From: a virus
Taxonomy: Duplodnaviria; Heunggongvirae; Uroviricota; Caudoviricetes
Virus record (IMG/VR): IMGVR_UViG_2778261035_000014
DNA: 27,714 bases
Direction: 5' to 3' (one strand)
Below, piece after piece: positions 9,568-27,714 of the stretch (positions are counted from its first letter, which is position 1; each line of letters begins with the position of its first letter). Below the pieces are notes generated by a model. That model had not been told where the DNA came from, did no database searches, and saw only the letters and a list, made by a program, of their open reading frames with translations. A program made the position numbers and the translations under genes.

Positions 9568-9655
9568 TCAAGTTGTCCTCCTCGTTCTAGGTACAAAAGA
9601 CCTCCCGCCAGTGGTCGCCCAGAAGGCGAACCGGCTCAGGTTTTGTTCAGTGTTG

Positions 9656-10850: not shown

Positions 10851-10932
10851 GTGCTCGAAAATCGACTACCCCCTACTCGAAAATCGTGCAGGTAGGTGCT
10901 CGAAAATCGAGGGGGTGGGTACACGAAAATCA
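10851..10932. repeat. Iteron-like array: four ~23-bp direct repeats with core CTCGAAAATCG
   Basis: gtgctcgaaaatcg (10851), tactcgaaaatcg (10875), gtgctcgaaaatcg (10896), acacgaaaatca (10921). Spacing is 22-24 bp, about two helical turns. The spacers ctaccccct and agggggtgg are complementary. Confidence 0.55.
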
Positions 10933-12213
10933 TGCAGGTATCACCGGGTGAGAATTTTCCAAGTCATCCACGCGACCAACGCACCGATGAAAACTTCCGG
11001 TTTGATATGTCCGCGTCATGCTTCAATGGCACAATCAACGGCAACACCTGAGGCGGTCCAAACACCTGATCCGCTCCGAGAATTGATCATCTCCCTCCCC
11101 TGCTTTCATCTGAAAGTACCGACCATTCTCCGCGCTGGCTGAAGATTGGCAACCCTATACTGATTTTCTGTCAAAATTTGGTGGATGATCTTTACCATTG
11201 GCTATCTTGTAAACAAAATAGATTAAATGCACCTCAAATAGCCCATAATCCGTAGTTAATCATGCTAAAGTGGTCACTATGCGTACAAATCAGAAGTCTG
11301 AACCTATGGGCGTTATGGTGTGATGTACATAACGAAGCCTTGCCAGCACTGGAAGCGTGAAATTTGGTGGCTGGTATCTGGATCAAGCAACACTCAATTT
11401 CTGAACCTTCGCTTCAAAAAAATAATAAAACAACACACAAAACCAAAACAGATGCCCTCTGGTGGCTGCTGTATCGCGCTGTGGGATGCTGTGGATTATC
11501 GGTATGTCAGTTCACGTTTGTGTAGAGATAACGCCGCTACGGGTTTCTGGTTGAGCGTAGGAGGGATTGGTGGGTTGGCTGTTTACATTGTTGTGGGAAA
11601 TGGTACGAAACAGTGGCGGCCTGGCTCGGTGAATATCACCAGGTGATGGCAGACCTTCAGCCCGTTGTGGTAACGTCGCCGTAGTAGCCCTATGTCTGCT
11701 GCGAATAGAAAAATGTGCTTTTATGGCATTTGATGCACTGTAAACTTCAAAGGCCTGAAACCTGAAATTGTGTGGTGACCAGCCAAACTCATCCAAAATC
11801 CTTGAACAAGAGAACTCACCTCAAATCCTCCTGAATGCTTTCCTTCTGTTGGTGAAATCGCTGTTGTGTACCACGCTTCGCATCAACGCTCCGAAAAGCA
11901 ATACCTGACTATTCCAGTCAAGTACATGTAAGATACAATATGTTAAATGGCTGTACAATTAGTGAACACAGGCACTTCAAAACATCAAGTTATCTCCCTT
12001 GCCTCAGCCCAAAGCAGCATTGTGTAACTGCACTGCTTGTTGCAGTGAGGCGTGTCGCTGAAGGCATCACGTAGCGATATTTGGCGAAGAAAAGCGCTTT
12101 TCACCGAGGGCCTGGGCTGACGGTCTAGCAGATCACCAACAGAGCTGGGGATATTTTCAACAGGAGAATGTAAACTTGGAAGATAAAGAGCCGGGACACT
12201 TACGGGGCAGGTT

Positions 12214-12429
12214 GTGGAAATGAAGAAAATTTTACTATTTGTTGTGGTACTGCTGCCGCTGGCGGCTCATGCAGGAAAAATCACCATAAGCAACCCCGAC
12301 GAACAAGAATTACAGGGCGGGAAAAGGCTTTGCACTTACGAAAACAGCATTTATCTGTTTACGCTGGTGACTCGCTCGCAATCCTGCCCTTTCTCAAAAA
12401 CGTTCGATACAAATGATAATGAAAAGTGA
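12214..12429 (+). CDS. Small secreted protein with two conserved Cys (paralog of 25846-26061)
   Basis: About 70 aa with signal peptide MKKILLFVVVLLPLAAHA. Conserved blocks GKITISNPDEQ, LCTYENS.YLFT, CPFSKTFDT are shared with the element-2 paralog. Confidence 0.6.
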   Translation: MEMKKILLFVVVLLPLAAHAGKITISNPDEQELQGGKRLCTYENSIYLFTLVTRSQSCPFSKTFDTNDNEK

Positions 12430-12442
12430 AACGGAATGTCTG

Positions 12443-12931
12443 CTAATGGGGTGCTTTGCCGATCATCTCCTTAAGATCTTTGAAGCGTTCTTTGATTATT
12501 CTTCCATTCTCGGCTAAACGATTCGCTTCAAACGCAGTGAATTGAGCAATATTTTCTATTTCTTCGCGGCTGATGCTCATAAAATTCTCATCAAGCTTAG
12601 AGAGCATATTTGTGACACCTTGTCTACTTTGTGTAAAGAAACCAAGGTTATCTCTGACACCCTTAAGAAGTTCTTTCTTACCATAAGGGTTCATATTTGT
12701 ACTCGTTTCTATAGACTTGATAAGCTCTTCCGTGTCACTACATATTCCACGGTAAACCAGTTCGACCTCACGAAGCTCTTTCACTGTATCAATTTTCATT
12801 TTCCTTAATGAATCATGCTCAGCATTTTTTCTTGATCGATAGGTGTTATACAGAGCAGTTATACTGACAACAAGTGCAATGAAAGAGAATAGAGCGCTAA
12901 AAAAAGGCAGCAATTCTTTTGACATTTTCAC
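12443..12931 (-). CDS. Membrane-anchored coiled-coil protein (cargo, unknown function)
   Basis: 162 aa with a GGAG Shine-Dalgarno. N-terminal TM helix LLPFFSALFSFIALVVSITALY, then a charged helical domain. Low GC. Confidence 0.6.
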   Translation of the reverse strand: MKMSKELLPFFSALFSFIALVVSITALYNTYRSRKNAEHDSLRKMKIDTVKELREVELVYRGICSDTEELIKSIETSTNMNPYGKKELLKGVRDNLGFFTQSRQGVTNMLSKLDENFMSISREEIENIAQFTAFEANRLAENGRIIKERFKDLKEMIGKAPH

Positions 12932-12953
12932 TCCAAATTTATTAGTCTAGAAG

Positions 12954-13652
12954 TTAACTTCTAAATTTTTGAAAACAACGTCGATCAATCTCTTGTGCCA
13001 ATCTAGTCCGCATCTCTCCATAGCTTAATCTTTCCATATCTGAGGCTATTTTCCAACCACAACCTTTGAAATTACATTTAATAATAGGAAATGGGACATA
13101 GTTATAGAGATCAACGCTGGAGTGTTGGCTAAGAAGGCCTCCACATTTAGGGCATCTCATGTGAAGATTTATTAAAGAGTACCCACTATCACCTAATGCT
13201 TTAGTCCATTCCCAAGAAACTATCATTTCATAAATATTATCCGAAGTATAATGCAAAAAACTGCCCTCTTGTCCTGTAGCTTTCGCTGCAATACGACGGC
13301 GCATTACAAATCCAACAGTAGGTAAAATTGCCAATAATAAAATCGATAAAATGAGGAGCATCCATAAGGGCATTGTGACTGGGAAGGTAAGGATGTCCAT
13401 TAACCAATGGAAGAACTGCTTAATGTAATTCCATAGCCACACAACGACGGCGATCCCACTTCCTCCAGTGACAAGTGCAACGATAACGCCCGATATGCTG
13501 TCTTTGCTAAGGTCTTTCAACCATGCCATAGAAATTCTTCTTATTAAGCTATTCTTTATGCTCAATTTTACAGCGAACCAGATTTTAGGCAATAGGAGCC
13601 ATAAAGCGCCGTGATGGGTACATCCATCGATCAGCGCCTTCAGGCGTGTCAT
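12954..13652 (-). CDS. Membrane protein with C-terminal 4-Cys zinc ribbon (cargo, unknown function)
   Basis: Up to 232 aa; the start may instead be the internal ATG at 13529. Two or three hydrophobic helices, then CPKC-(x25)-CNFKGC. Sits 22 nt upstream of the 162-aa gene, so probably an operon. Confidence 0.55.
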   Translation of the reverse strand: MTRLKALIDGCTHHGALWLLLPKIWFAVKLSIKNSLIRRISMAWLKDLSKDSISGVIVALVTGGSGIAVVVWLWNYIKQFFHWLMDILTFPVTMPLWMLLILSILLLAILPTVGFVMRRRIAAKATGQEGSFLHYTSDNIYEMIVSWEWTKALGDSGYSLINLHMRCPKCGGLLSQHSSVDLYNYVPFPIIKCNFKGCGWKIASDMERLSYGEMRTRLAQEIDRRCFQKFRS

Positions 13653-13977
13653 CAGATTTTCAGCGGTAACGATCAGTGAGTCAGGTGTGCATTTTCGTAT
13701 ACACGAAACGGGGTAGAGCCTGCCGCTTTCCCGGACAGGTTAGTAATCCCATCATATCGCCTGTTTATCCCGCGCTAAGGTCGTCGTAAGCGCCGCTGTT
13801 TCAGGAATGGTTTATAGCCATAGTGAAAGGCTTTGTTTTCTTGTTGGACTATCGCGGTAAGACACTGGAACGACCGCCAGCGTTTTGATAAGCTTCCTGA
13901 TCACTACTCACCAAATCGCGGTAGTTACCAAGGTAGAACGTCGAGAGGGTTCTCAACAGCGCTTACAGAGCGCCTCC

Positions 13978-14064
13978 CTCTAAGCACCGGAAACATAAAG
14001 ATTTTTTAGCTGATTTTAAGCGTAAAAAATCGCTGGAGCGGGCGAAGGGAATCGAGGAAACCCA
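13978..14064. repeat. Inter-element att junction: 16-bp motif (13978-13993) and 22-bp core (14043-14064)
   Basis: Same two motifs as at 786-832 but in the opposite order and with 49 nt between them. Confidence 0.6.
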
Positions 14065-14140: not shown

Positions 14141-15361
14141 GTGTCGATCAAGAGCCAAGCATACTTATTTAAAAGAAAAGATGGGATCTGGATGTTTCAG
14201 ATTTTTGTTCCTAAATACTTACGTCATCTTTACCCTTATAAGTTGTGGAGAAAAAGCACATCTACACGAGATCTGAATGAGGCGAGAAGATTCAGAAACC
14301 ATCTATTATTAGAATGGGAGGAACTAAAGCGAAAACATAATCCTGATAACCCCGAAAGGAGGTTACAAAAAGCTATTGAATCCTTACATTCAGAGGCAAG
14401 GGCCAATAAAAACACGCAAAGAGCCGTAAAACGCGGTTATGCACCGCCTTCCCTGTGCCTAATACGTGACGAATACGCCGAATGCTACAGAGAGCGTCGT
14501 TCATACTCAACACTACAGAAATCAGCAAGGGCCGTTGAGCTATTTTTACAAAGCATTCAGAAAGATGATATTCATATTGAGAAAATAGGCAGACGGCTTG
14601 TAACAGTATTCTTAGATGACCAGAAGCAACGAGGAGCAGCCGATCAATCTCGTCAAAACTGGCTTACATGCTTAGGATCGCTCTATGAATTTGCTAAACG
14701 CCGTTATGACGGAATACCAGACAATAACCCTTTTCACGGTCATAACCTCGAAGCACGTCGCACAATCGAGAGTTATCAACCGTTTACACCTGAACAAATG
14801 CAAAAGCTACTTGATGCAGCGGAGCCGGAGATCAGAAATATTATTTTAATGGGCTTGTTTTCAGGATGCAGATTAGACGAACTGGCAAGCCTGAAAAAGT
14901 CAGAGGTTGTAACTGTGGAAGGAATACGCTGTTTTTATATCAGCAAGAGTAAGACTAAAGCAGGGATCAGACACGTTCCGATACATTCGAGACTATCGAT
15001 TATTGTCGATGAATATTTAAATCATAATTATGGTGAATATTTGTTCCCTCACTCGAACAAAGTAAAAAGAATCGACGGCAAGAAAGGCCCGTTCTATTCT
15101 CAAGCATTCTCACGTTTACGTCGTAACGTCTTGCCAATCGCTACAGATAGACAATGCTTTCACAGCTTGCGCGGGATGTTTATCACTTGTCTTGATCGTG
15201 CCGGAGTGCCTGAACAGCGGATCGGAGCCATTACCGGACATACAGAGCAGAGAGCTAAAACAGAAGCCTTTCGCACCTACTCACAAGGGGCAAGCATTCC
15301 AGAATTAGCTGAATATGTAGAATTAGTAAAATATGAATTAAATATTGATTTTAAGGCGTAA
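14141..15361 (+). CDS. int: Tyrosine-type site-specific integrase (second, diverged copy)
   Basis: 406 aa with a GTG start and AGAGGA Shine-Dalgarno. Same catalytic motifs (SGCRLDE, HSLRGMF, GHTEQ...RTYS). N-terminus differs from integrase 1. Confidence 0.9.
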   Translation: MSIKSQAYLFKRKDGIWMFQIFVPKYLRHLYPYKLWRKSTSTRDLNEARRFRNHLLLEWEELKRKHNPDNPERRLQKAIESLHSEARANKNTQRAVKRGYAPPSLCLIRDEYAECYRERRSYSTLQKSARAVELFLQSIQKDDIHIEKIGRRLVTVFLDDQKQRGAADQSRQNWLTCLGSLYEFAKRRYDGIPDNNPFHGHNLEARRTIESYQPFTPEQMQKLLDAAEPEIRNIILMGLFSGCRLDELASLKKSEVVTVEGIRCFYISKSKTKAGIRHVPIHSRLSIIVDEYLNHNYGEYLFPHSNKVKRIDGKKGPFYSQAFSRLRRNVLPIATDRQCFHSLRGMFITCLDRAGVPEQRIGAITGHTEQRAKTEAFRTYSQGASIPELAEYVELVKYELNIDFKA

Positions 15362-15468: not shown

Positions 15469-17310
15469 TTAACTTGGTGCTTGCCCAGACAGAGCCGCCA
15501 ACGTGAAACTACGTTCAAAATCTTGTTGGATACTTCCCACTTTGTAATCGAGGTATGATCCAAGCTGACTACCATCAGGGGCGATATTCACATCCACCTT
15601 GCTTTCCGGCACGTTTACGACGATGTTCGGTGCATACGTCATAGATGGGGTAGTGTTCAGATCACGGCTAACGTTCTGTTTCAGGGATTGCACGTTATCA
15701 GATGGGCTTGCATAGTTCTGAATTGCAGTTCCGCCAGTCGTTGGCTTGTCTTCCGTGCCAGGAATAGGATCTAAGCCTAAAGCACTACGACCCCAATCAA
15801 CCATACCACCTACAAACGAGTCCTTATAATACATACCGGACGAATCAAGGTTTTCATGCTTGTTCTCTGGGTTGATATTTTGGTATGCAGCAGTAAGCCA
15901 CGATACAGCACCAGCAAAGGCGCTCATCATTTCAGCCGTTGAGCTTCCAAGTTCTTTAAACAGAGGATTCAAATCTTTCAACATTTGCGCCCACTCTTCA
16001 CCAGCTTGAGCATCGAACTCTTCACCAAATCCAGTCATGATAGCTTTCTTACTACCTTCCCATGCCATATTCATATTTGCCTGTACCGCTTGCAGACGTT
16101 CGGCAGCGTCCAGATCCGCTTGTGTATAGGTGGCATTGGCCTTTTGCATCTTAACGATGGTCTTGTTTAGCTCTTCACCATTACGACTAAAGGCACCACG
16201 GAAATATTGCAAATCATTGCCCAGGTCTTCAAGGATGTGCCCGATTTCTTGATCTGATAATCCACGGCGTTCACCTTCTTTCACTACAGCGCCCAGGAAA
16301 CCTAAAGGATCAGTCTGGAAACCTTTAACCTGTTCAGGTGACCAGCCATATTTATTAAGGATGTTATCGACGGCACCATTACCGCCAGCCCAGCGACCTT
16401 TCTTAGCGTCCCATTTGGTATTCCCTACGGATTCACCTAAACGTTCCTGAACGTCTTTAAGGTTGTCTTGACGTTGGTCTACGGAACTATCAACACCGTG
16501 TTCTAAGCCGTACTGGTTGAGAGCTAACAGGGCGTTAGTGTTTACGTTGACAGCCTTTGCCTTGCGGTTAGTGTCTGTGATCTTGCTTGCCTGATCGGTT
16601 ACGGTATTGAATATCGCAGCACCGCCGAAAGTAGCAGCAGTGAGAGCGGCACCGCCTACCATTGCACCGACACCAGCGCCCATATGACCACCTTTAAGCT
16701 GTTTAGCCATATGTGGGTATTTACCGCCATCAGCCGCCACCTGGCGAGCTTTTACAGCAGCCGCACGGCGTTCTAACGTGATACGATCACGGATCAGGTG
16801 ATTCATCTTAGCCTGACTTATAGCGCCTTTCTCATACGCTGCCGTTTGTGCTTTGATGTATTGCAATGTTTTGTAGTACTGGGCGCTGTTCATACCGTCG
16901 CCCATACGCCCTTTTTTGATGCCTTCAAGCTGGCGGAAAGCTTGCTGGCGTTTAATCTCTGCCTTCTCTGCTATTGTCGCTTTAGCGCGGATCTGTTTAT
17001 CGGCAGCTATAGCGGCTTTAGCCTTCGCTTTAGCTTCTGCCTTTGCCACCTTATCAGCGTTCTTCTTGTCTGTTTGAGCTTGCTTGTCTGACGCTTTAAC
17101 ATCAGCTTTAGCCTGTGCAGCTTTACGAGCCTTTACCAGATCATGAGCATCGTCTATAGCTTTTTTAGCCTTCTTCCCTTTCAATGTTGGATTGGTCAGG
17201 TTTTCCATTTCTTTTTGAAATTTCTTCCCTGCATCGCGTGCTTTCTGCAATGATGCAAAATCAACTTTAAATACAACCTTGTTTGTTAAGGTTGAGATGT
17301 TTAAATCCAT
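15469..17310 (-). CDS. Long coiled-coil protein with glycine-rich hydrophobic segment (tape-measure-like, function unresolved)
   Basis: 613 aa with an AAGGA Shine-Dalgarno. TolA-like KAKAEAKAKAKAAIAADKQIRAK helix, then GGHMGAGVGAMVGGAALTAATFGGAAIF. Lies downstream of the capsid and HTH genes, unlike element 1. Confidence 0.6.
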   Translation of the reverse strand: MDLNISTLTNKVVFKVDFASLQKARDAGKKFQKEMENLTNPTLKGKKAKKAIDDAHDLVKARKAAQAKADVKASDKQAQTDKKNADKVAKAEAKAKAKAAIAADKQIRAKATIAEKAEIKRQQAFRQLEGIKKGRMGDGMNSAQYYKTLQYIKAQTAAYEKGAISQAKMNHLIRDRITLERRAAAVKARQVAADGGKYPHMAKQLKGGHMGAGVGAMVGGAALTAATFGGAAIFNTVTDQASKITDTNRKAKAVNVNTNALLALNQYGLEHGVDSSVDQRQDNLKDVQERLGESVGNTKWDAKKGRWAGGNGAVDNILNKYGWSPEQVKGFQTDPLGFLGAVVKEGERRGLSDQEIGHILEDLGNDLQYFRGAFSRNGEELNKTIVKMQKANATYTQADLDAAERLQAVQANMNMAWEGSKKAIMTGFGEEFDAQAGEEWAQMLKDLNPLFKELGSSTAEMMSAFAGAVSWLTAAYQNINPENKHENLDSSGMYYKDSFVGGMVDWGRSALGLDPIPGTEDKPTTGGTAIQNYASPSDNVQSLKQNVSRDLNTTPSMTYAPNIVVNVPESKVDVNIAPDGSQLGSYLDYKVGSIQQDFERSFTLAALSGQAPS

Positions 17311-17328
17311 AATATTTTCCTTTACCTT

Positions 17329-17544
17329 TTATTTATTCTGTTTTGATACGTAATATTGCACTGCTTCCATAGCGGAACAGCCTGTAGCAAAAATTCTTTG
17401 ACGTACAGCGGTATTAGAGATCCCTAAAAACTTACATACTTGTGAGATATTTAGAATATCTTCCGGTAAGGTGGAAACAGCTTTCAGGATTTCAACGGGA
17501 TTGTTATTTTGTGTGTTCATGGTTTTCTCACTTTTATTCGACAT
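17329..17544 (-). CDS. Small helix-turn-helix DNA-binding protein
   Basis: 63-71 aa. HTH-like ILNISQVCKFLGISNTAVRQRI. C-terminus homologous to the 2938-3150 product. Confidence 0.55.
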   Translation of the reverse strand: MSNKSEKTMNTQNNNPVEILKAVSTLPEDILNISQVCKFLGISNTAVRQRIFATGCSAMEAVQYYVSKQNK

Positions 17545-17664
17545 TAGAAAACAAAAAGGGCAAAGAGATCCGTTACTGTATTTGCTTTACAGGTTAGTTA
17601 ATCCCTTTTGCCCTTATTGCCTGTTTTATTTCCAGTCGCACAGGAAACGACTATTAACGCTTTA

Positions 17665-18693
17665 TTACGCTACTGTGATCTGTACAGTGAAGCCTACGCC
17701 GTGGTTTACAACCATCTGGCTATTCTCGGTAACTACGTTTACAGCGTCGTTACGTGCTGGGCTAAATGCATAGCTGTAATATTCAGCCGATCCAGAGTTC
17801 AGAAGGTCGAACGTTGAAGAAGGAGCGCCGAAAATGTTCTGATAGACGTTAGAGCCTTTAGCGAACTTCGGAACAGCCACCGCATCAGAAGTCATATGAG
17901 CCAGCAGCAGCGGATCGGTAACTTTGATCAGATCAATGTTAGTGCCTGGAATAGTGAAGGTAGTCACACCTGGCAGCAGGGAGCGCACACTATAAACGAT
18001 GTTTGCGTCATCGGTAGGGCTTGCATACTGGAACGCGTTAACCATGCCAGCACTGTAACGGATAGCGTTAAATGCAGCAGGTTTACAGAATACAACGATA
18101 CGCTCTACAGCAGCCGCCTGGCTTTGTGCTTTAGTAATAACGTCTGTATGCATCTGATCGAATTGCTGGAACACCATAGAAGGCGTGGTGCTTGATGCGT
18201 CGATGGTTGCAGTCAGCGGAACAGCACTAAACAGATCGCCCCACTGAATCAGCACATCGTCAGTTTTAGGGGTGTAGGTGCGACCACTAAACAGGGAAGC
18301 AGCCAGTACGCTTTCTTTAGTACGCTGGAAAGCAATGTGGTGCTTAGCAACATATTCCGCGTAGATATCTGTCAGAGTCTCTTCAACGGTAGCGCCTGGT
18401 TTACGTTTGCCTTGAACGTCTTGCGGCTTAATCATATCTTCACGCAGGAAGTAGGGGATCTCTACTAAAAATTCTTTACCCTGTTCACGTTTAGTCACGT
18501 TATGTTCAGAAGAGAAACGAGAGGTTTCTTTGTTGAACAGAGATTCGTTAGTTTCCACCAGTTGGCTAACAGCCACTTTATGAGAACTCACACCTACCGG
18601 ATCAGTGAAGTCCAGAGTAGTTAACAGGAAGTTGCGAGAGTCGTGCAGACTAAACAGCGGAGCCAGATCGACGGATTCATTACCAATAATCAT
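17665..18693 (-). CDS. Major capsid protein, lambda gpE-like (second copy)
   Basis: 342 aa with an AAGGA Shine-Dalgarno. Paralogous to the 3264-4280 product and preceded by the small partner gene. Confidence 0.7.
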   Translation of the reverse strand: MIIGNESVDLAPLFSLHDSRNFLLTTLDFTDPVGVSSHKVAVSQLVETNESLFNKETSRFSSEHNVTKREQGKEFLVEIPYFLREDMIKPQDVQGKRKPGATVEETLTDIYAEYVAKHHIAFQRTKESVLAASLFSGRTYTPKTDDVLIQWGDLFSAVPLTATIDASSTTPSMVFQQFDQMHTDVITKAQSQAAAVERIVVFCKPAAFNAIRYSAGMVNAFQYASPTDDANIVYSVRSLLPGVTTFTIPGTNIDLIKVTDPLLLAHMTSDAVAVPKFAKGSNVYQNIFGAPSSTFDLLNSGSAEYYSYAFSPARNDAVNVVTENSQMVVNHGVGFTVQITVA

Positions 18694-18711
18694 TATGTTT
18701 ATTCCTTTATA

Positions 18712-19083
18712 TTAAGATGTGAATACAGTGTTAAAACCAGCCATCTGGAAGCCTTTAGCAGCCAGAGCAGCAATAGCGGCTTCTTTAATAGCGCCTTCAA
18801 CATTCAGAGCATCAGACTTGATGCAAACCAGTCCGGCATTGCTACGCAGCACGTTAACGGTTTTAGCGTCGCCAGCGGATACCGCATCAGACACAACCAC
18901 AAGAACATCGCCGCCGCTTACATATTCAGCGCCGTTACTGGTAATCAGATCGCCGCATTCCACATCAACCGCCAGATCAACGGTAAAAGATTGCACACAA
19001 CCGAACTCATCAGTTGCATAGCTCACGATATCGGTAAATGATTTGCGAACTGGAAACAGATCGCTCATATTAATAATAGCCAT
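18712..19083 (-). CDS. Putative head decoration protein (gpD-like by size and synteny)
   Basis: 123 aa, 18 nt upstream of the capsid gene. Positional and size analogue of 4299-4643. Confidence 0.45.
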   Translation of the reverse strand: MAIINMSDLFPVRKSFTDIVSYATDEFGCVQSFTVDLAVDVECGDLITSNGAEYVSGGDVLVVVSDAVSAGDAKTVNVLRSNAGLVCIKSDALNVEGAIKEAAIAALAAKGFQMAGFNTVFTS

Positions 19084-19085
19084 AA

Positions 19086-19301
19086 TTAATAGTTTCCTTT
19101 TTTGGATTGTTTGATTTGTTCTGCTTTTGCTTTAATCAGATCCTGCATAGTAGGCTTCTGTTCATCAGCAGACTTAAAAAGCTTATCACAATGTTTTTTC
19201 AATTCTGTTGGAGTGATCCCCAACATATAAGCCGTAGCATTGAATGTTTCATCAGTGATAATCAATTCTTCGTTACCATTCTTTAGAATGAGATTTTGCA
19301 T
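19086..19301 (-). CDS. Hypothetical small protein (71 aa) leading the capsid operon
   Basis: ORF ending 2 nt before the decoration-like gene. Lys/Glu-rich. No counterpart in element 1. Confidence 0.45.
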   Translation of the reverse strand: MQNLILKNGNEELIITDETFNATAYMLGITPTELKKHCDKLFKSADEQKPTMQDLIKAKAEQIKQSKKGNY

Positions 19302-19361: not shown

Positions 19362-20175
19362 AAACTTCCGGCTTTATGAATACAACATTTTGAAGGATGC
19401 GATAGAAGTGTTACTAAATCGTAGTTATATGCACTTAAAGAGGATAGGACATATAAGAATAAGATTGCTTATTGTTATATACCCTTGAGGGGTGAATAAC
19501 AGGCTTACAGGGAGTAGGCGCTTAGGAGGTCGCCCCCTTTGGAGAGGAATCTATAAACCTGTTATTCGTGCGATGGCTAATCGCTGTCGTCACAATGTGG
19601 ATGCATCGATCAGACGTTCAGGAATCACCTATTAACTTTCAAACCTTTTTGGATTCTCGTTTTAATAGGAGTGGTGCCGAGATGATTTCGGGGATCATCC
19701 ACGCTTTCGCGTTCTAAGATTGGCACCTTAATAAACACCAACAAACAAAAAACGTATTCAGCTTTAGGCTTAGTAGAATTGCTGTTAAGAAACAGATATA
19801 CACCGTTATTTGTTTATACGGGGTTTATAGACACTGTAAACAGTGTTTTTAGAAAGTGTTTCATGCTTCACAGTTGGTTAAAAAGATGAGGGGCCAAGTC
19901 CATAGCCCCTGCATTCTTAAGACACAATTTTGATAAAGCAATAAGGAAAATAAAATGAAACTATTAACGAGGGAAACAATTTCTAAAAATCACTGTAAAG
20001 GGAAAGCGAGGTAGGTTAGATAGGGCGCGACCCCTTGAGGTCTACCCCGCTTTCGTGTAGGATTAAAATCTGGAGAAGGATTAACGCCAGCTAACACCTG
20101 TTTTAGATTATTTCCTCTACATTTCTTATTATATAACATTTCTGTTATAAAGTCAATAGTTAAATCAAAGTTTTT

Positions 20176-20388
20176 TCAATTCTTTTCGGTTGTTAACTGC
20201 CACTCACCAAATACGCAATTACCATCTAAAACAATTGTTTGTTCGTTACCGTTATCATCGGTTACGTGCATAAGGCGGGTGTAAGTGTCGAGTAAGCCAG
20301 TATACACTTTACCTACTGTGAAACATTGGCACGCTTTACCTTCTTCTGTAAGTGCCAGTAAACGGGCACGTTTGGTTTTTACTGTCAT
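20176..20388 (-). CDS. Hypothetical small protein (70 aa)
   Basis: ORF overlapping the upstream gene by 4 nt in a tightly packed operon. Confidence 0.5.
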   Translation of the reverse strand: MTVKTKRARLLALTEEGKACQCFTVGKVYTGLLDTYTRLMHVTDDNGNEQTIVLDGNCVFGEWQLTTEKN

Positions 20389-20693
20389 TGGTTAACCTTA
20401 TCGATTAGTTCTGCTATGAGTGGTTGCAAATCTGCTACCGCTTCTTGCATGATTTCTGTGGTGTCGTTGATGACGATGATCAGATTAGAAAGGTCGTCGG
20501 CTTCAATCATTGCACCTTCTGATTGATCACAAGCTTCAATAAGCAATTGCAGTGCTTCCCGCGTCGATTCCAGATTAATAACCGCCTGTGTAATGGTTAG
20601 CTCGCTTGGAAAGGTCAGAGCCGCGTTCACTGCTTTCTGTAAATCAATAACCAGATCCATCATTTGAATAGTTACGGTGTGAACTTCGCTCAT
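20385..20693 (-). CDS. Small highly acidic protein (102 aa)
   Basis: About 18 Asp/Glu against 3 Lys/Arg. Start overlaps the upstream stop. Confidence 0.5.
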   Translation of the reverse strand: MSEVHTVTIQMMDLVIDLQKAVNAALTFPSELTITQAVINLESTREALQLLIEACDQSEGAMIEADDLSNLIIVINDTTEIMQEAVADLQPLIAELIDKVNQ

Positions 20694-20914
20694 TATGCCA
20701 CTTCCTCTAATTGTTCTAATTGTTGTTGTGCTTCACGTGCTTTCTTCATAGCAATAGTGAGCGGGATTTTATAAGTTGCAATGTTGTCTATAATATCATC
20801 GAGTAAACCGAGATCGTTTTCTTCCTGTGCACATTCAATCAGGCTTATGAAACATTCAGAAAGAAGCTTAAGATCATGAAAAGTGGTTGTCTCTAAAATT
20901 GCTTTGTTAATCAT
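20693..20914 (-). CDS. Small acidic protein (73 aa)
   Basis: ORF in the same operon with an acidic composition. Confidence 0.5.
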   Translation of the reverse strand: MINKAILETTTFHDLKLLSECFISLIECAQEENDLGLLDDIIDNIATYKIPLTIAMKKAREAQQQLEQLEEVA

Positions 20915-20955
20915 TTTATTTTCCTTTTGTTAAGGGTTATATTCAGCAAACGCTG

Positions 20956-21336
20956 TTAATCGTCGATTTTTATTGCACTGAGCAGAAGTAATTCTGTCTC
21001 TGTCACACCTGCATATTTCAGACTGTTAAGAGCCATGTAGCCACGAAAATGATTCATATCCTGGAAGCCTAAACACTGCCATCTTTTAAGAAGACTACTA
21101 TCAATGATTGTTGTTTTACGTGGGCGCGGATTGAAGTAAACACCATCCATACTTTGAATGATTGATAATTCTTCGTCTGTCAATTCTGGGCTTGGTTCTT
21201 CAAGTATAAAGATCAATTCCTCGCCTGGTTGTGCATCATGCTCATAATTATATTTGCGAGGATTGTTTAACGCATACTGATCACATGCTTCGCCAATAGT
21301 TGTTATTACGTTTTTCTTGCCTTTTTTCTTGCTCAT
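20956..21336 (-). CDS. Hypothetical protein (126 aa)
   Basis: ORF with a Lys-rich N-terminus MSKKKGKK. Confidence 0.5.
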   Translation of the reverse strand: MSKKKGKKNVITTIGEACDQYALNNPRKYNYEHDAQPGEELIFILEEPSPELTDEELSIIQSMDGVYFNPRPRKTTIIDSSLLKRWQCLGFQDMNHFRGYMALNSLKYAGVTETELLLLSAIKIDD

Positions 21337-21464
21337 TGCTTCCCCTTCGTTTTGTTTTTCTTGTTGCAGTGTTAAAAAAGGAAGCGATCATAAATACTAA
21401 GAAAAATATTAAGCTTTCCATTGTTTCACCCTTCAAGATGTTTGATAGTTGTTTGTTGTTTGTT

Positions 21465-21683
21465 TTAAGCTACAGAGTCGATTCTGAATGCTTTCATATG
21501 AGTTTTTGTATACTGCAATAATCCTTGTTTACTTAGGTTATCGAGAAGAGCATATAAAAATTGCTCACCTACCACACCGGAAAACTCAGAATCAAACAGA
21601 ATCATTCCCGTTCTTTCCCGTAAATATTGCAGAAAGATTTCTTGTGAAAATTCGCCATCGAATATGATCACAGTGTCATCCAC
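21465..21683 (-). CDS. Hypothetical small protein (72 aa)
   Basis: ORF overlapping the upstream gene by 16 nt. Confidence 0.45.
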   Translation of the reverse strand: MDDTVIIFDGEFSQEIFLQYLRERTGMILFDSEFSGVVGEQFLYALLDNLSKQGLLQYTKTHMKAFRIDSVA

Positions 21684-21925
21684 AATTCAAACGGGTTTAC
21701 CTCGAGCAAACGGAACGTCTGACTATTCACAGCTTCATACTGAATTACCCCAAAATGGCTTAGGTGATTTAGCCAATGCTGTGTGTGTTCTTTACTGTGC
21801 GGTAACTCCTGAAAGCTGATAATCGCGGGTAGCTCATAATTGCTATCAGCGATCTGTTTTGCCAGTGTGTAGCCGCTTTCTGTAATTTCGAATGTTCGTT
21901 TGTTTAATGTCAGGTTGTATTTCAT
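21668..21925 (-). CDS. Hypothetical small protein (85 aa)
   Basis: ORF immediately downstream of the rep-like gene. Confidence 0.45.
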   Translation of the reverse strand: MKYNLTLNKRTFEITESGYTLAKQIADSNYELPAIISFQELPHSKEHTQHWLNHLSHFGVIQYEAVNSQTFRLLEVNPFELWMTL

Positions 21926-21937
21926 TTTTTATTCTCC

Positions 21938-22603
21938 TTAAAATGGTATTGAGTCATAGATTTCACTTTCTTTTCTCAGGGCTATCATCAGTGCATTAAA
22001 AGCATCATCTTCAAGAATTATCCTCTTCGAGGTCAGTGCACGTTTTATAAAATTTTCTGTTTCTTCTTGCATAGGCTTTTGGCTGTCTATGGAAATAAGC
22101 CATGTAAAAAGATCAGATTGTTCCGTGATTTCTGCCTGTGTTTCCTGCTCAATAGAGTGTGTCGCTTCTAACGGTTCCTGTGTTTCAGGTGCAGGCTGTT
22201 CTACGTTTACAGAGGTTTTTACGTCTTCCGGTGGTGTGATGTGTGCATCTGTAAATGGTAATGCTTTATAGAGTGATGTTTGCCCGTCCCGTGCCTCTAC
22301 AGAAAGAACACCCATATCAATAAACATATTTATAATATTACGCACCTGACGATCACTAACCATTCCAATATTAGCTAATGTTTTTTGATTGGCGTAACAT
22401 TCTTGCCCTTGTTCATTGAACCCAGCTACGTAACTGTAGATTTCAACGGCTGGAAGTGTCGCGGTGTATTCCTTACCTGACGGTGAGAACCACTTTTTAA
22501 ACATCTTCAGCCATTGTTCAACTACTACATATGTTTGTTTACTATCTTTCTTATTGAGGCATTGCGCTTTTGCTTCGGCAATTGTTTTGGTGTTTTGGTT
22601 CAT
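21938..22603 (-). CDS. Replication-initiator-like or winged-helix DNA-binding protein
   Basis: 221 aa. Segment ECYANQKTLANIGMVSDRQVRNIINMFIDMGVLSV. Acidic C-terminal half. AAGGAGG Shine-Dalgarno lies inside the upstream ribbon-helix-helix ORF. Confidence 0.5.
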   Translation of the reverse strand: MNQNTKTIAEAKAQCLNKKDSKQTYVVVEQWLKMFKKWFSPSGKEYTATLPAVEIYSYVAGFNEQGQECYANQKTLANIGMVSDRQVRNIINMFIDMGVLSVEARDGQTSLYKALPFTDAHITPPEDVKTSVNVEQPAPETQEPLEATHSIEQETQAEITEQSDLFTWLISIDSQKPMQEETENFIKRALTSKRIILEDDAFNALMIALRKESEIYDSIPF

Positions 22604-22727
22604 TTAGTTCCTCCTTTGTAAGGACTGTAATTAGTAATTCATTAACAAGTTTTGGAATTGATTTCCCTTCTGCCTTTGCACGATTTAACAACGCGTTATA
22701 AGTTGCAGAATCAAAATTAATATTCAT
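22551..22727 (-). CDS. Ribbon-helix-helix DNA-binding protein (58 aa, absent from the ORF track)
   Basis: Hand-translated: MNINFDSATYNALLNRAKAEGKSIPKLVNELLITVLTKEELNEPKHQNNCRSKSAMPQ. GGAGAA Shine-Dalgarno. Homologous to the 9364-9567 product. Overlaps the rep-like start in another frame. Confidence 0.5.
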   Translation of the reverse strand: MNINFDSATYNALLNRAKAEGKSIPKLVNELLITVLTKEELNEPKHQNNCRSKSAMPQ

Positions 22728-22750
22728 TTGGTTTTCTCCTTCTCCTGTTA

Positions 22751-22933
22751 TTATTCTTTCTCTGCTTCTGCCTTACGCAGTTCATCAATAATTTTTAGTG
22801 CATCGTCAAAGCATTTTTCACGCTCTGGATAACCACAGCGCCGCGCTGTGTTCCTGTTCATCCTTACTTGATGTCGTGTTAGCTCACCTTTTTTAAATGC
22901 CTCTACGACGTGTTCCGGTGTATACCATTTCAT
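22751..22933 (-). CDS. Small basic protein (60 aa), first gene of the leftward operon
   Basis: ATG at 22933 with AAGGAG Shine-Dalgarno 7 nt upstream (MKWYTPEHVVEAFKK...). Confidence 0.5.
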   Translation of the reverse strand: MKWYTPEHVVEAFKKGELTRHQVRMNRNTARRCGYPEREKCFDDALKIIDELRKAEAEKE

Positions 22934-23917
22934 AAAAAACTCCTTATTTAGATAAAAGAAAAACACACCTTGCAGCCTGACGGCTCAAAGTGCAGTGTTC
23001 TGTGATTTGATTATTTAGATGGAGAGAGATGTTTCTCCCCTCCCTACTTACAATACTACATAACGGCGGCTTTGTCAACCCTCTTTTATAAAAAATTTGA
23101 TCATTTTCAATTTCTTATAATTTTTCTTAGCTTTTTGTGCTGCCTACTCTGGTACAATTCTTCCCTGTTGCCTAAAACGCTCTCAATCGCACTCTGACGG
23201 GGTTTTGATAAAAACAATACATTCCCTTATGTAGAGGTTGTTTATCTCGTCAGAGGCTTATTTAAGGGGCTTATTTTTGATTTATCAGATGATGGAAAGA
23301 TGGTGGATAGATAAATTCTGATTTCAGACATCTTATAAAATACCTGCAAAGTTCTCAGAAGCTCTGTAACGAGCTAATCTATTACCGCTAAGGTGTTTCC
23401 CTTACATTACCCTGTTTAGCTCGCCTACGGCTTGATTTAAGCGGTAGAATCTTATTTAACCTTCAACTACAAAAACCATTCTTTCTTTTTTGTTGTTGGT
23501 TGTTTTGTCATGTTATGCGTTAGCATCCCCAAAGGGTAACGCGACACTAACAACCATTCGCTTACGCTCAGGTTATTGCACAAGTAAATTTCAATCGTTA
23601 GATGGTAGTTAGTTAATTATCGTTCTGCGCACAGCGCAAGACTATTAGCCATACGCAAGCCGTAGGCTATTTGCACATAGTAGATTACATATTCGTTGTG
23701 AGCGGAAAGCGAACATAGATCAGCTAACTACTAACAAAAAACAAAAAACAAAAACTATCTGTTATGACAAGCATCAGTCTAACTTGTGCAAGGTTCTGGC
23801 GAATGCCAATAGATTAAGGGATAGTCGAAGACTCCCTAACGGGTATCCCTATAATTATTCTTTAAAAGATAAAAGAATTTATAAAAGATAGTTTAATTGT
23901 AGTTTAATTATAGTATT

Positions 23918-23969
23918 GTAGGAACTCATTTCCTGGGTAGGTAGGAACTCATTTCCTGGGTAGGTAGGG
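23918..23969. repeat. Tandem direct repeat, 2.3 copies of 23-bp unit gtaggaactcatttcctgggtag
   Basis: Exact copies at 23918-23940 and 23941-23963, then a partial copy; preceded by duplicated agtttaatt. Confidence 0.7.
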
Positions 23970-25092
23970 AAACCGCACTATACACTGGTAAGTGTCTTGC
24001 ACAGAAAAAGGTATCAAAAATGTCTAAAGCCCCTTTAGATAAAAATGATACCTTTATACATGCGCTAATAGCGCGCATAACAATAACCTACTAACAACTA
24101 ACTAACTAAAAAGTAAGAAGATGTTGTTATGATTAGTGTATCGCTCAACGCTCACATCTATCTCTGATCTATAAATTGGTAACTGTCTAACAACAACAAA
24201 CAACTATTACATGCAAAACAGCCTTACGGCTGCATAGAGATGATTGGCTAACCTTCGGTTGCTACGCATAGCCATATCTATGAGAAGATAAAAGAGATTT
24301 AAAGGTTAGTTTGTTGTTGATCTAACCAACATTCGCTATACGCTCATACAATCTACATTACACATTAACTATCAAACTACAATCTAACGATATATAGAAT
24401 CTATATCCACTCATTATCATTCGTGCAATGATCACATTGATAGTTCGCTATACGCTCACCTCAATTATGTGCAATGGCTTTTCAGGCAACGCGTTAGCGT
24501 ATTCTTGCGAATGCCTGATCTCCAAAGCCGGAATTAAACAGCAAGAATATCTCGTGTAAATCGTAGAATATTCATAGTTTATTCCGTGTAATTCCATACT
24601 AAAAAATGCAATGAAAAGTAGCTTCAAAGTGCAATTCTTACTTTCTTCACTTTTACATTATCATCAGCAAAGCCTTATGTAATGCGGCATATAGCGTATC
24701 ACTGCAAAATTGTTGCTCAATAAATGTTCTACCATTTGTTGAACGAATGTTCACTCGTGCACATCTCAAAGAGAATAATCATTTGTCATACAATTCCATA
24801 ATAAGAATTATTATCACTTATAATGCAATACAACCCAGATTCGATACACTTTAGCAAAGTGTATTCTGTAACTTACTGATCTTTATATACTCAGGCATAT
24901 ATAGACCATTTATCGCTATTTATTGGCTATTTTTCATCTGCCGAAAATAAATTTCTTGACAAGACAAATCATTTGTGAACAACTTGCATAAAATAAATTT
25001 ACTTATAAATCAACAAGATATTTCATATTTGTGCCTGCATCAGATCGGGAGGCTTGATCTTTGTGTTCAACGATGGTGACGGACGCACCTAA

Positions 25093-25172
25093 ATTAAATC
25101 GGTTTTAATCGCCTTTAATACCTTTTAATCAGTCTTAATCACCTTTTAATAGCCCTTTAATCACTTTTGATC
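25093..25172. repeat. About eight phased ~10-bp repeats with core TTTAATC
   Basis: ggttttaatc / gcctttaata / ccttttaatc / agtcttaatc / accttttaat / agccctttaatc / acttttgatc. About 10-bp periodicity, ending 100 nt upstream of the recombinase start. Confidence 0.6.
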
Positions 25173-25273
25173 ATTTAGTGCTCTCAACCATAAAACGTAT
25201 CGTGCAACATATTGAAAATGATCGTTTTATGATCAAAACTACTTTCATTGAAACGAATAAGGAGAGTATAAAG

Positions 25274-25852
25274 ATGAAAGGTATTAGCCAAGCCCTCAAG
25301 AATGTAGACGAGGTAAAAACAGTAGCAGCAGAGCTACAGCGCAATAGTAAAACCAACCTGTTTTATTGCTTATGGGTGTTTATGTATGAAAGCGGGTTGC
25401 GTGTCTCTGACGTACTCAAGCTAAAATATCAGGATGTTGAGGGGCAATCTCATTTGAAGATAAAGCAGGAGAAAACCGGAAACGTAGTAAGGCCAAAAGT
25501 TACCCCCGCCATGTTGTCAGTGGTGGCACAACGCAAGGCAGAGCAAACGAAGATGCCTGTAGCTACAGATTTTATTTTCAGTGCTGGCACATTACGCAGT
25601 AAAGGCGAAGCCGTAACCCGTAACACGGTATTCACTGAATTTGGGAAAATGGGACGTAGAGCCGGATTCTCTAATGTGGGATGCCATACGCCACGTAAAA
25701 GTCGGGGCCGTGTGATGTTTGATGCAGGGGTAGCTATAGAGACAATAGCCCATTTCCTGGGACAGACAGATCCGCGCTCTACTATGTATTACATCGGGTA
25801 TGGTCAGGATGTGCAGGACGATTTAGCAGAGGAGTTTTCTTTAGAATGGTGA
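25274..25852 (+). CDS. Small tyrosine recombinase, FimB/FimE-like (catalytic domain only, 192 aa)
   Basis: AAGGAG Shine-Dalgarno 9 nt upstream. Motifs ESGLRVSDV (Arg), HTPRKSRG (His-x-x-Arg), and C-terminal LGQTDPRSTMYY (Tyr). Size and motif spacing resemble my recollection of FimB. Stop overlaps the next start in ATGGTGA. Confidence 0.65.
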   Translation: MKGISQALKNVDEVKTVAAELQRNSKTNLFYCLWVFMYESGLRVSDVLKLKYQDVEGQSHLKIKQEKTGNVVRPKVTPAMLSVVAQRKAEQTKMPVATDFIFSAGTLRSKGEAVTRNTVFTEFGKMGRRAGFSNVGCHTPRKSRGRVMFDAGVAIETIAHFLGQTDPRSTMYYIGYGQDVQDDLAEEFSLEW

Positions 25853-26061
25853 TCCAAATTAAAAGCTTATTTGTGCTGACGTTGGCGCTATTGCCTGTCC
25901 TATCGAATGCCGGACAGATAACAATGGTCAACCCACAGGAAGAACAGACGGAGAATGGAAAAACGCTGTGCACGTATCAGAACAGCAATTATCTGTTCAC
26001 TTACGTAACTAAGGGGAAATGCCCTTATACAAAAACATTTGACACTTCCGCCAAAGAATAA
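25846..26061 (+). CDS. Small secreted protein with two conserved Cys (paralog of 12214-12429)
   Basis: 71 aa with signal peptide MVIQIKSLFVLTLALLPVLSNA. Conserved blocks GQITMVNPQEE, LCTYQNSNYLFT, CPYTKTFDT. Confidence 0.6.
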   Translation: MVIQIKSLFVLTLALLPVLSNAGQITMVNPQEEQTENGKTLCTYQNSNYLFTYVTKGKCPYTKTFDTSAKE

Positions 26062-26066
26062 CGATT

Positions 26067-26486
26067 TTAACGGGATTTTGGATAAATGCTGTTTCTGCAA
26101 TTAATGCAATACCAACTCGCGGAGTATTGACCAACGGCACGCGAAAAAACCATGTGTGTTTGCACCTTATCAACTTCAAAGCATTTGGGACAGTAGGCTG
26201 TTTCATCGCCTTCTTTCCAGTAAAGTCCATCTTTGAAAGTGAAGGTGTGCTTATCCTTTAGCTGATCTTCAAGCTGCTTATTTTTCTGTTCAGCCTCAAA
26301 AAGAAGTGCTTGGGTTGTGATTACTTCCATCTTCACACTTGCAAGTTCGCTCATGAGGTTAGCAAGCTCAAGTTTAAGCGTTGCTTTATCAAGTTCGCCG
26401 CCATCATCAGCGAGCTTCTTTGCAATACCTACAGCTTTGTCAATGATACCTACAGCCGCCGCTGTACTTGCCAACACTCCAGACAT
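26067..26486 (-). CDS. Coiled-coil protein with C-terminal zinc ribbon (cargo, unknown function)
   Basis: 139 aa. Central heptad-like region, then CPKC-(x24)-CINC. Last gene of the leftward three-gene operon. Confidence 0.55.
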   Translation of the reverse strand: MSGVLASTAAAVGIIDKAVGIAKKLADDGGELDKATLKLELANLMSELASVKMEVITTQALLFEAEQKNKQLEDQLKDKHTFTFKDGLYWKEGDETAYCPKCFEVDKVQTHMVFSRAVGQYSASWYCINCRNSIYPKSR

Positions 26487-26508
26487 ATTGCCCCTAATTT
26501 TAACAAGT

Positions 26509-27144
26509 TCACTTTATAAAAGCTAAAGCCCTAAGAACGGTTTTTAACCGCGTTACCTGCTCAGGCTTTTCAAGTTCATCCAAATTAACATTAATTTTAT
26601 CTAAACAGATGGCTATACGTGACATAACCTCGCCATGAATCTGCTTCAAACCTTCGCCATATTGAGTGGCAATATGGTAAGTCTGTTCTAAATTAAAACG
26701 ATGGATATCTTTCTGCGTTTCATGAAATATGGTTTGAAGTTTAGCTAAGTCCTCTAAAACCTGATTATTCATTCTGAAAGTATCAACCAGACTCCTTGCT
26801 GAGCCATAACAAATAACAATTGCCTTCATTGTCTCTTCATTAACAGAAGTTAATGCGAAAGAGTTGCTTTCATAGAATGAGAAATAATTTTGAGTCAACG
26901 GAAAGATGCTTTCAAAAGGTTTACCACCTTCATAATTTTCAAGAGAATCGTAAATTCTGGCTTTATAAAGTTCCAGAAGCGTTTCGACTTCTGCTTTTAT
27001 TCCAATCAAGACACTCTTTTGCTTATCCTTTGCTTCATTAAATGAAGCTCTGTCTTGCCTACGTCCATCGATCAGAGTACCCCACAGGGTGAACAATCCC
27101 CCTATCAAGGCACCAACTAAACCAGAAATCAGTTCACTTCCCAT
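26509..27144 (-). CDS. Membrane-anchored protein (cargo, unknown function)
   Basis: About 211 aa from the ATG at 27144 (ORF-track start is TTG at 27159). N-terminal TM helix ELISGLVGALIGGLFTLWGTLI. Begins 16 nt after the upstream stop. Confidence 0.55.
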   Translation of the reverse strand: MGSELISGLVGALIGGLFTLWGTLIDGRRQDRASFNEAKDKQKSVLIGIKAEVETLLELYKARIYDSLENYEGGKPFESIFPLTQNYFSFYESNSFALTSVNEETMKAIVICYGSARSLVDTFRMNNQVLEDLAKLQTIFHETQKDIHRFNLEQTYHIATQYGEGLKQIHGEVMSRIAICLDKINVNLDELEKPEQVTRLKTVLRALAFIK

Positions 27145-27159
27145 GTTGCCCCCTAACAA

Positions 27160-27714
27160 TCATTTTTGACAGCAATGATCCCATTGCTCAGTAGTCCTTG
27201 CAACTCGATCACTGATTGCAAAGTTATTCAGCAACGAATCATAAGCGTACACTTTGCTTTTATCATCTGCTGTCATCAACTTACCATCAGGTTTCAACTT
27301 TGGCGAAAGCAAGTATGTACCGTTTAAACGGTTAGCTTTGAAGCTATCAACATGCAACGTTACTTCAGCACTTCCCAGCACACGTAAAGAACCTATTCTG
27401 CCATTCTTTATTGTTGCTATCGAATACTGACATAGATAAGTTTTCACAATTGAAGCTGCGTTTTTTTCGGCAATCTTCGCTGATGGAGAATCCAAAGAGG
27501 ATTTGGGGATTGAACTATGAAGAGAAGATGACGGATAAGAGTAATGTTGATAAGTAGAAGATGAGCGCGAACTACCTCCACATGTTTTCCATGCCGCAAT
27601 ACACGAATTACCACACGGTATACCTTTCTTGCAATTCTTCGCGTATGCAGAGAACGACAACCCAGCTAATAGAAATATACCAATGGTTATCCTAACCAGC
27701 GAAGACCAACCCAT
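27160..27714 (-). CDS. Secreted Cys-rich and Ser-rich protein (cargo, unknown function)
   Basis: 184 aa with the ATG exactly at the window edge. Signal peptide with AYA cleavage site, then CKKGIPCGNSCIAAWKTCGG, a Ser-rich linker, and a C-terminal domain. Confidence 0.5.
   Translation of the reverse strand: MGWSSLVRITIGIFLLAGLSFSAYAKNCKKGIPCGNSCIAAWKTCGGSSRSSSTYQHYSYPSSSLHSSIPKSSLDSPSAKIAEKNAASIVKTYLCQYSIATIKNGRIGSLRVLGSAEVTLHVDSFKANRLNGTYLLSPKLKPDGKLMTADDKSKVYAYDSLLNNFAISDRVARTTEQWDHCCQK

Follow-up and report, generated by a model that had tools for sequence, protein, structure and literature searches.

The six-gene operon

This analysis concerns a run of six small genes within a 27,714-nucleotide (nt) stretch of DNA assigned to the Caudoviricetes (IMG/VR record IMGVR_UViG_2778261035_000014), which at its full length is called the window below. 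The genes belong to an integrative element, here named Element 2, that lies in the second half of the window. They form six consecutive open reading frames (ORFs) on the minus strand at positions 20176–21925, with products of 85, 72 (68), 126, 73, 102 and 70 amino acids (aa), and RefSeq calls all six as hypothetical proteins through the Prokaryotic Genome Annotation Pipeline (PGAP). The first gene after the replication gene is g85 (21668–21925), whose product is assigned a beta-hairpin and a winged-helix fold. It is followed on the same strand by g68 (21465–21671 from the PGAP start, a GTG at 21671; 72 aa from the GTG at 21683), by g126 (20956–21336), which has a basic N terminus and a conserved core, by the acidic g73 (20693–20914) and the strongly acidic g102 (20385–20693), and by g70 (20176–20388), the last gene of the operon. 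A candidate ORF of 46 aa (21281–21421, minus strand) has its own ribosome-binding site, a hydrophobic N terminus and a basic tail, and is not annotated by PGAP. The first-pass annotation of the window described six tightly overlapping genes with overlaps of 1–16 nt. The six ORFs stand, and overlaps occur at three of the five junctions: 4 nt between g85 and g68 (GTGA; 16 nt with the longer start), 1 nt between g73 and g102, and 4 nt between g102 and g70 (ATGA). The remaining two junctions are instead gaps, one of 128 nt between g68 and g126 in which the 46-aa ORF lies, and one of 41 nt between g126 and g73.

These are real genes. A Shine-Dalgarno sequence stands at proper spacing in five of the six, with only a weak one for the 68/72-aa gene. 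Comparison with relatives at 87–93% nucleotide identity reveals purifying selection in five of the six, with ratios of nonsynonymous to synonymous substitution rates (dN/dS) of about 0.10–0.24, rising to 0.37 for g102 (g126, 0.12–0.24; g73, 0.12–0.24; g102, 0.10–0.37; g70, 0.12–0.17). For g68, which is 97.6–100% identical at the nucleotide level in relatives, there are only five substitutions, too few for a dN/dS verdict. The interval 20100–22000 is 100% identical to E. coli SCU-102, and the six-gene region is present in 76 of 5,426 complete E. coli genomes.

Three further genes precede the six in the same operon: those for a 60-aa protein (22751–22933, minus strand), a 58-aa ribbon-helix-helix-like protein (p58; 22551–22727, minus strand) and a 221-aa HTH_36 replication-initiator-like protein (p221; 21938–22603, minus strand), with assignments from Pfam and PHROG. 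A promoter scan placed a sigma-70-like promoter (TTGACA-17-TATTGT, 10/12 matches) at 23050–23078 on the minus strand, the likely start of the operon, and no minus-strand terminator was found between this promoter and the g70 stop codon.

The 102-aa and 73-aa products are indeed very acidic, as had been noted at the outset. The isoelectric point (pI) of g102 is 4.05, with 18 aspartate and glutamate (D+E) residues against 3 lysine and arginine residues and a net charge of −15; that of g73 is 4.32, with a net charge of −8. This acidity is kept in homologues of only 26–33% identity (pI 4.05–4.13 for g102, with one homologue at 26%; pI 4.26–4.49 for g73, with 67-aa homologues at 30–33% that lie at pI 4.26–4.34), and it is therefore a selected property. 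It is not unusual for its setting, however, as similar acidic small proteins are common in the early regions of the putative helper phages discussed below: 8 of the 52 small early proteins of three Stephanstirmvirinae phages have a pI below 4.6. The stop codon of g73 overlaps the start of g102 by 1–4 nt in every variant compared. An AlphaFold2 model of g102 (predicted local distance difference test score 88.8) is a three-helix bundle with helices at residues 3–27, 31–57 and 65–101. Among the residues conserved in g102 are specific polar ones, namely Q10, D13, Q19, N23 and the segment D88-L-Q-P-L. A profile search with g102 against 1.84 billion representative sequences gave 7 matches, which were family members or fragments and one repetitive protein that we judged spurious, and a scan of IMG/VR with the g102 alignment found no relative.

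According to its structural model, g85 is a winged-helix domain, with a topology of helix, strand, recognition helix and beta-hairpin wing that matches solved winged-helix domains. Among the folds that it matches are those of ORC/Cdc6, RPA32C and the winged-helix domain of a plasmid initiator. With a pI of 5.9 it has few basic residues, and some winged-helix domains bind proteins rather than DNA. The possibility that g85 is a paralogue of the initiator HTH_36 domain was rejected, since no similarity was detected. The g68 protein is probably a shorter paralogue of g85, given a BLASTP match of E = 1e-3 over 22 residues that span the recognition-helix and wing motif. The conserved core of g126 reads PGE..I.E...GV.(F/W).PR.RK..I...L..Q.LGF..H..G, and homologues of 32–55% identity occupy the same position in related elements, including those of Pseudenterobacter and Enterobacter. 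The 46-aa ORF overlaps the start of g126, and elements have either both or neither; since no relative differs from it by more than 1 nucleotide, its coding status is unproven.

The only one of the six with a recognizable family is g70, a member of phrog_27862, to which phAPEC8 gp032 also belongs; the acidic proteins g73 and g102 are not members. The g70 match to phrog_27862 covers residues 1–64 of 70 (3e-13; 1.5e-15 for a variant), and a local hidden Markov model recovers phAPEC8 gp032 at 3e-22. A tblastn search with g70 matched 71 phage records, all at less than 60% identity, the best being phAPEC8 at 41.7% and the other listed Phapecoctavirus proteins lying at about 41%. In phAPEC8 the gp032 gene sits within a run of small early genes upstream of a helicase. 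For the other five proteins, which we call orphans, remote relatives were sought more widely. A tblastn search of these orphans and the neighboring small proteins (concatenated) against 50,697 phage records matched only the 58-aa protein, and phmmer and hmmsearch comparisons with the ORFs of muut and with early proteins from three phages of the helper type gave no remote homologues of the five. Sequence and profile searches of the PDB with all six families returned nothing, and searches of large databases with g102, g126 and g85 returned only unnamed Escherichia proteins. Weak matches to AATF-Che1, ZorA, BrxA and PspA fell far below cut-offs and were rejected.

Element 2, its relatives and its link to Stephanstirmvirinae

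The surroundings of the window are E. coli chromosome, from type III secretion genes of the ETT2 cluster to tRNA-Gly/actS. Copies of the 23-bp 3′ end of tRNA-Gly occur at 786–808 and 14033–14055, and the intact tRNA gene lies just beyond the end of the window, so that two elements lie in tandem within the window. Element 1 spans 808–14033 (~13.2 kb, 47% GC), and Element 2, integrated at tRNA-Gly, runs from 14033 to ~28.2 kb (~14.2 kb, 40% GC). Their integrases are 60% identical, and the same 23-bp repeat borders 13.5–14.2-kb elements at eleven other loci.

The left att repeat of Element 2 (14033–14055, plus strand) is followed by a tyrosine integrase gene (14141–15361, plus strand; Pfam Phage_integrase) and then by a late, structural module (15469–19301, minus strand; Pfam, PHROG and tblastn). 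In order from the integrase, this module encodes a 613-aa tape-measure-like protein, a 63-aa protein, the major capsid protein (Pfam Phage_cap_E, lambda-E-type), a 123-aa decoration-like protein and a 71-aa protein. After ~0.9 kb of non-coding DNA come the six small genes, then those for the 221-aa, 58-aa and 60-aa proteins, a repeat-rich non-coding stretch of ~2.2 kb, and a small number of cargo genes. The tape-measure assignment follows from a match at 6e-67 to phrog_16051, which carries that annotation. Scans of the Element 2 proteins against Pfam and PHROG detected no terminase, portal or protease. A Dit-like baseplate gene is present in some relatives (for example at 2119–2796 of L015; L numbers denote related loci). 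Element 2 is thus a discrete integrative element with att repeats and an incomplete set of virion genes. By gene content it is satellite-like and fits none of the definitions of P4, phage-inducible chromosomal islands (PICIs), capsid-forming PICIs (cfPICIs) or PICI-like elements (PLEs). A satellite with its own capsid, decoration and tape-measure-like genes and no terminase, portal or protease would, on this gene content, be unusual.

Several parts of Element 2 point to one group of phages. The interval 22248–22508 is 90% identical at the DNA level to gene 154 of phage muut, which encodes a protein with HTH_36 and MUG113 domains (p221 and gp154 are 75% identical as proteins), and 22575–22741 is 96% identical to bas60_0101 of phage PaulScherrer (p58, 86% protein identity). 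Both muut and PaulScherrer are virulent Justusliebigvirus phages, and both shared genes head a phage early operon. The two DNA stretches, at 90% and 96% identity, therefore indicate that the island and Justusliebigvirus phages have exchanged genes recently. The GC content of the six genes (38.8%) compares with 37.4% in muut. The phage matches of the 613-aa protein are confined to tape-measure proteins of ~145–152-kb Stephanstirmvirinae-type myoviruses, and phage proteins related to the capsid protein over its full length (24–26% identity) come from the same group; the capsid protein also partially matches ~91–93-kb Pseudomonas phages. On the basis of this sequence sharing, the helper is likely a virulent Stephanstirmvirinae myovirus of the Phapecoctavirus/Justusliebigvirus type. 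The initial suggestion of a mobile element with a helper-phage lifestyle is thus upheld by the ~14-kb tRNA-Gly island, its 23-bp att repeats, its own capsid genes, the lack of a detected terminase, portal or protease, and the sharing with Stephanstirmvirinae.

Comparison of seven related elements shows how the six genes are inherited. The order rep, g85, g68, (g126), g73, g102, (g70), non-coding DNA and late operon is constant across the compared elements. It is the same whether the replication module is the 221-aa HTH_36 protein or a ~495-aa DEAD-like helicase, and it holds across three capsid types, two integrases and two integration sites (the second site and the other integrase occur in L016). 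The optional members are g126, which together with the 46-aa ORF is missing from some elements (L004 and L016 have no counterpart), and g70, which is missing from another. In more distant relatives (IMG/VR, Escherichia sp. and Pseudenterobacter), a g126 homologue is followed by an overlapping acidic helical protein of 112–121 aa (pI 4.4–4.5) in the same place, ahead of the capsid operon; an Enterobacter contig stops before the position of the acidic protein. Homology of these proteins to g102 or g73 was not demonstrated (hhalign E = 0.086 and 0.75), and we treat them as positional analogues.

Variable cargo is found elsewhere, at a hotspot at the tRNA-proximal end (25178–27714, around 25.9–27.7 kb), which in the window holds a truncated integrase-like gene and three other genes. 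In strain E10 this hotspot carries the defence gene PD-T7-4 (PADLOC, 6e-90); other cargo includes an Imm_superinfect gene in a Logan contig and, in other relatives, genes for a YecR family lipoprotein or a Hok/Gef family protein. Cargo sites in relatives include L013:14383–15003 and L032:2376–2663. Because the order and families of the six genes persist across differing modules, integrases and sites, the genes behave as core genes and not as swappable cargo. The first-pass annotation had called the region variable, noting that Element 1 has different genes in this slot. The latter point is borne out, as tblastn with the six proteins found none of them in 1–13900, where the slot holds ORFs of 199 aa and 127 aa. 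The broader description is true of the alleles, which are the most diverged of the element, and of the optional g126 and g70, but it does not extend to the order and families of the genes, which are kept.

Possible roles of the operon

We favor a model, to which we assign a probability of about 40%, in which an integrative satellite relies on a virulent Stephanstirmvirinae myovirus as its helper, the six genes make up the distal part of its early operon, and they serve as core life-cycle factors and not as cargo. In such a model, transcription would start at the sigma-70-like promoter near 23078 and reach the six genes after the ribbon-helix-helix-like and HTH_36 initiator-like genes, and the three overlapping junctions of the five would be translationally coupled. 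The g85 protein, and probably g68, would be small winged-helix regulators or adaptors, and g126 would be a conserved factor of the core set. The co-translated acidic helical proteins g73 and g102 would attach to a basic surface on some protein of the helper or the host (one that binds nucleic acids, for instance) and probably sequester that surface. The helper-derived g70 would provide an early-gene function common to helper phages, and all six would target the helper or the host in the early phase of infection. The analysis shows that the genes are real, how the operon is laid out, which folds g102 and g85 adopt in their models, that gene order and acidity are kept, and that the element is linked to Stephanstirmvirinae. 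What we infer is when the genes are expressed, which molecules they act on, and whether the effect is one of hijacking, interference or regulation. A bolder version, which we regard as possible but doubtful, sees in the operon a helper-takeover toolkit. Its owners would be a family of Enterobacteriaceae satellites not described before, which live on large virulent Stephanstirmvirinae, a group used in phage therapy, and supply capsid, decoration and tape-measure proteins of their own; g73 and g102 would represent a new class of inhibitor directed at a nucleic-acid-binding protein of the helper or host, and g85 and g68 would reprogram transcription.

Several observations weigh against the model we favor. 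The interval 20100–21300 is the most diverged part of elements that are otherwise 95–99% identical, and such divergence would also be expected of arms-race genes, including those for anti-defence. Scans of all six proteins and of their divergent variants against Pfam, NCBIfam, PHROG and PADLOC gave no real match except that of g70 to phrog_27862, and five of the six have no homologue with known function. Dependence on a helper rests on sequence sharing, and common descent or recombination could account for the similarity to helper genes even if the element does not depend on a helper today. Finally, the allele types of g73 and g102 assort independently (L014, L015, L016 and L017), which argues against a tightly co-evolving heterocomplex of the two acidic proteins.

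The first-pass annotation had pointed out that small acidic proteins of mobile elements are often DNA mimics or anti-defence factors; in this case g102, g73 or both would be DNA mimics or inhibitors of another kind, shielding satellite (and helper) DNA from restriction-modification or other defences on entry into a new cell. The strong and evolutionarily kept negative charge, the small size of the proteins, their place in an early operon of a mobile element and the hyperdiverged alleles would all suit such a role, and they share with T7 Ocr, ArdA and T4 Arn the character of small, acidic (pI about 4), early proteins of mobile elements. Anti-defence genes have been reported on many mobile elements, satellites among them (bioRxiv 10.1101/2024.08.21.608784). 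Nonetheless, neither the database searches nor the structure prediction gave this idea any support. None of the six proteins matched a defence or anti-defence entry in PADLOC, and none matched an anti-defence family in Pfam, NCBIfam, PHROG or the PDB. No sequence or fold match to Ocr, ArdA or Arn was found, and the g102 model is a plain, compact three-helix bundle. A Foldseek search of the PDB with this model found only generic bundles of the syntaxin Habc type, none at E ≤ 1e-3; the 50 best matches listed include no DNA mimic. The D+E content of g102 and g73 is 18–19% (18% in g102), which is at the low end of the range for known DNA mimics, and what g102 conserves is a set of specific polar residues, not charge alone. 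Moreover, the family occurs in a single lineage of satellites in Escherichia, whereas genes for anti-defence are usually passed around between elements that are not related; its position and synteny are core-like, with the cargo hotspot elsewhere; and acidic small proteins are in any case common in helper early regions. We therefore consider an anti-defence role unlikely, although the kept charge and the diversity of the alleles lend it some plausibility.

Another reading gives the proteins a part in replication, as origin-binding winged-helix cofactors, as loaders or recruiters of a helicase, or as acidic proteins that recruit replisome components of the helper or host by mimicking the tail of the single-stranded DNA-binding protein (SSB). 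In all variants the genes come straight after the replication gene, and the fold matches of g85 to ORC/Cdc6, RPA32C and the plasmid initiator domain fit this assignment. However, the same block serves two unrelated replication modules, the 221-aa HTH_36 protein and the ~495-aa DEAD-like helicase, and Pfam, PHROG and NCBIfam gave no homology to DnaC, DnaT, P-type loaders or SSB, so that a role as replication accessories also appears improbable to us.

A third reading would place g102, g70 or g73 in capsid assembly, as scaffold-like or size-determining proteins of the satellite capsid or as inhibitors of the helper capsid. The allele types of g102 and g70 always change with the capsid/decoration module, type A occurring in the window and L012–14, type B in L015–16 and type C in L017. 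Small size, helical structure and acidity are typical of proteins for scaffolding and redirection, such as SaPI CpmB, and the g70 family weakly matches a PHROG annotated as virion structural (L015 variant, 1e-4; protein of the window, 3e-3). Physical linkage alone, however, can explain the co-variation. In addition, ~0.9 kb lies between the six genes and the late operon, with the end of the early operon, a strong promoter and a terminated RNA intervening, and it is the 71-aa gene that stands where a scaffold gene is usually found, ahead of the genes for decoration and capsid proteins. We find this role quite improbable.

That the 46-aa ORF, as a membrane peptide, and g126 form a toxin or abortive-infection moron that harms non-helper phages or stabilizes the element is hardly credible, because g126 homologues are the most widely kept gene of the slot across genera, PADLOC gives no match and the coding of the 46-aa ORF is unproven, even though the two are gained or lost as a block and the ORF has the hydrophobic helix and basic tail of small membrane toxins.

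If the dependence on a Stephanstirmvirinae myovirus that we favor is correct, Element 2 would be an E. coli satellite aimed at Phapecoctavirus/Justusliebigvirus-type phages, which are common in therapeutic collections. The six proteins would then be obvious candidates for the means by which the island senses, exploits or blocks its helper, and a source of new small protein inhibitors. Taken alone, they are mostly orphans, and the DNA-mimic idea is without positive support.

Comparison with known satellites and further features of the locus

To our knowledge, satellites of virulent phages are well characterized in only a few systems, chiefly the Vibrio PLE and the phage-inducible chromosomal minimalist islands (PICMI), and satellites induced by virulent phages in Streptococcus thermophilus were reportedly described in 2026. 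A literature search for satellites of Stephanstirmvirinae, phi92 or rV5 phages, or for a glyU/ETT2 island, found nothing that describes Element 2, with most subscription journals lying outside the search. PLEs are 13–18-kb integrative islands of Vibrio cholerae and satellites of the virulent myovirus ICP1; after their replication gene they carry operons of many small orphan proteins, including helper-directed regulators and inhibitors. Element 2 resembles them as an integrative island probably tied to a virulent myovirus, with small orphan genes behind a replication gene, but differs in host genus and helper family and in having capsid, decoration and tape-measure-like proteins of its own, whereas PLEs remodel the helper coat. 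No family matches that would indicate similarity to PLEs were found in Pfam, PHROG, NCBIfam or PADLOC, which involved no direct comparison with PLE proteins.

With the cfPICIs, Element 2 shares its occurrence as an E. coli island, an integrase and its own HK97-fold major capsid protein. In contrast to them, it has no detected small terminase, portal, protease or head-tail connectors; it has a tape-measure-like gene, as well as a Dit-like gene in some relatives; and its structural relatives are virulent Stephanstirmvirinae and not temperate siphoviruses. Classical PICIs differ further, as Element 2 has virion structural genes and no repressor or alpA was recognized. The likeness to P4 lies in being an E. 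coli satellite with an early operon that mixes replication and small helper-directed proteins (epsilon, orf151 and alpha in P4), and in a structured RNA beside the early genes (the CI RNA in P4; the candidate RNA at 19878–20122 in Element 2). However, psu, delta, sid, alpha and epsilon were not found with Pfam, PHROG and NCBIfam, the helper is of another type, and Element 2 has its own capsid gene.

This candidate RNA lies just beyond g70. A near-consensus promoter (TTGACT-17-TATAAT) at 20156–20128 on the minus strand, directly after the g70 stop codon, would drive a structured non-coding transcript of ~240 nt (promoter and transcript together spanning 19878–20156), and a terminator scan placed its intrinsic terminator at 19910–19889 on the same strand. 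The RNA bounds the 3′ side of the operon. It has a predicted minimum free energy of −67.3 kcal/mol (z = −3.2), and the −35 hexamer and the stems are kept in four elements, with one compensatory pair only. Rfam gave no match for it. Its place is between the early operon and the late one, and it is a candidate for a regulatory role.

At the other end of the early operon, a 2.2-kb AT-rich non-coding region (22967–25177) contains a perfect 23-bp tandem repeat at 23918–23963 and several families of iteron-like repeats, and from this repeat content it is a candidate origin or packaging site. Element 1 carries capsid, decoration, 781-aa tape-measure-like and HTH_36 initiator-like genes (5314–7659 and 8586–9389), and in this parallel design it represents a more distantly related second example of the Element 2 type.

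In many assemblies, the 102-, 126- and 85-aa genes lie on contigs of 13.2–14.6 kb (Logan/ENA), which approximates the element in length. Among these, SRR28159019 (13,668 bp) has no integrase gene in the ~10.6 kb retrieved, which includes the usual position of the integrase, and it ends just past the g70 homologue. Element-sized contigs could represent excised or episomal forms, or could result from an assembly break at the conserved RNA region.

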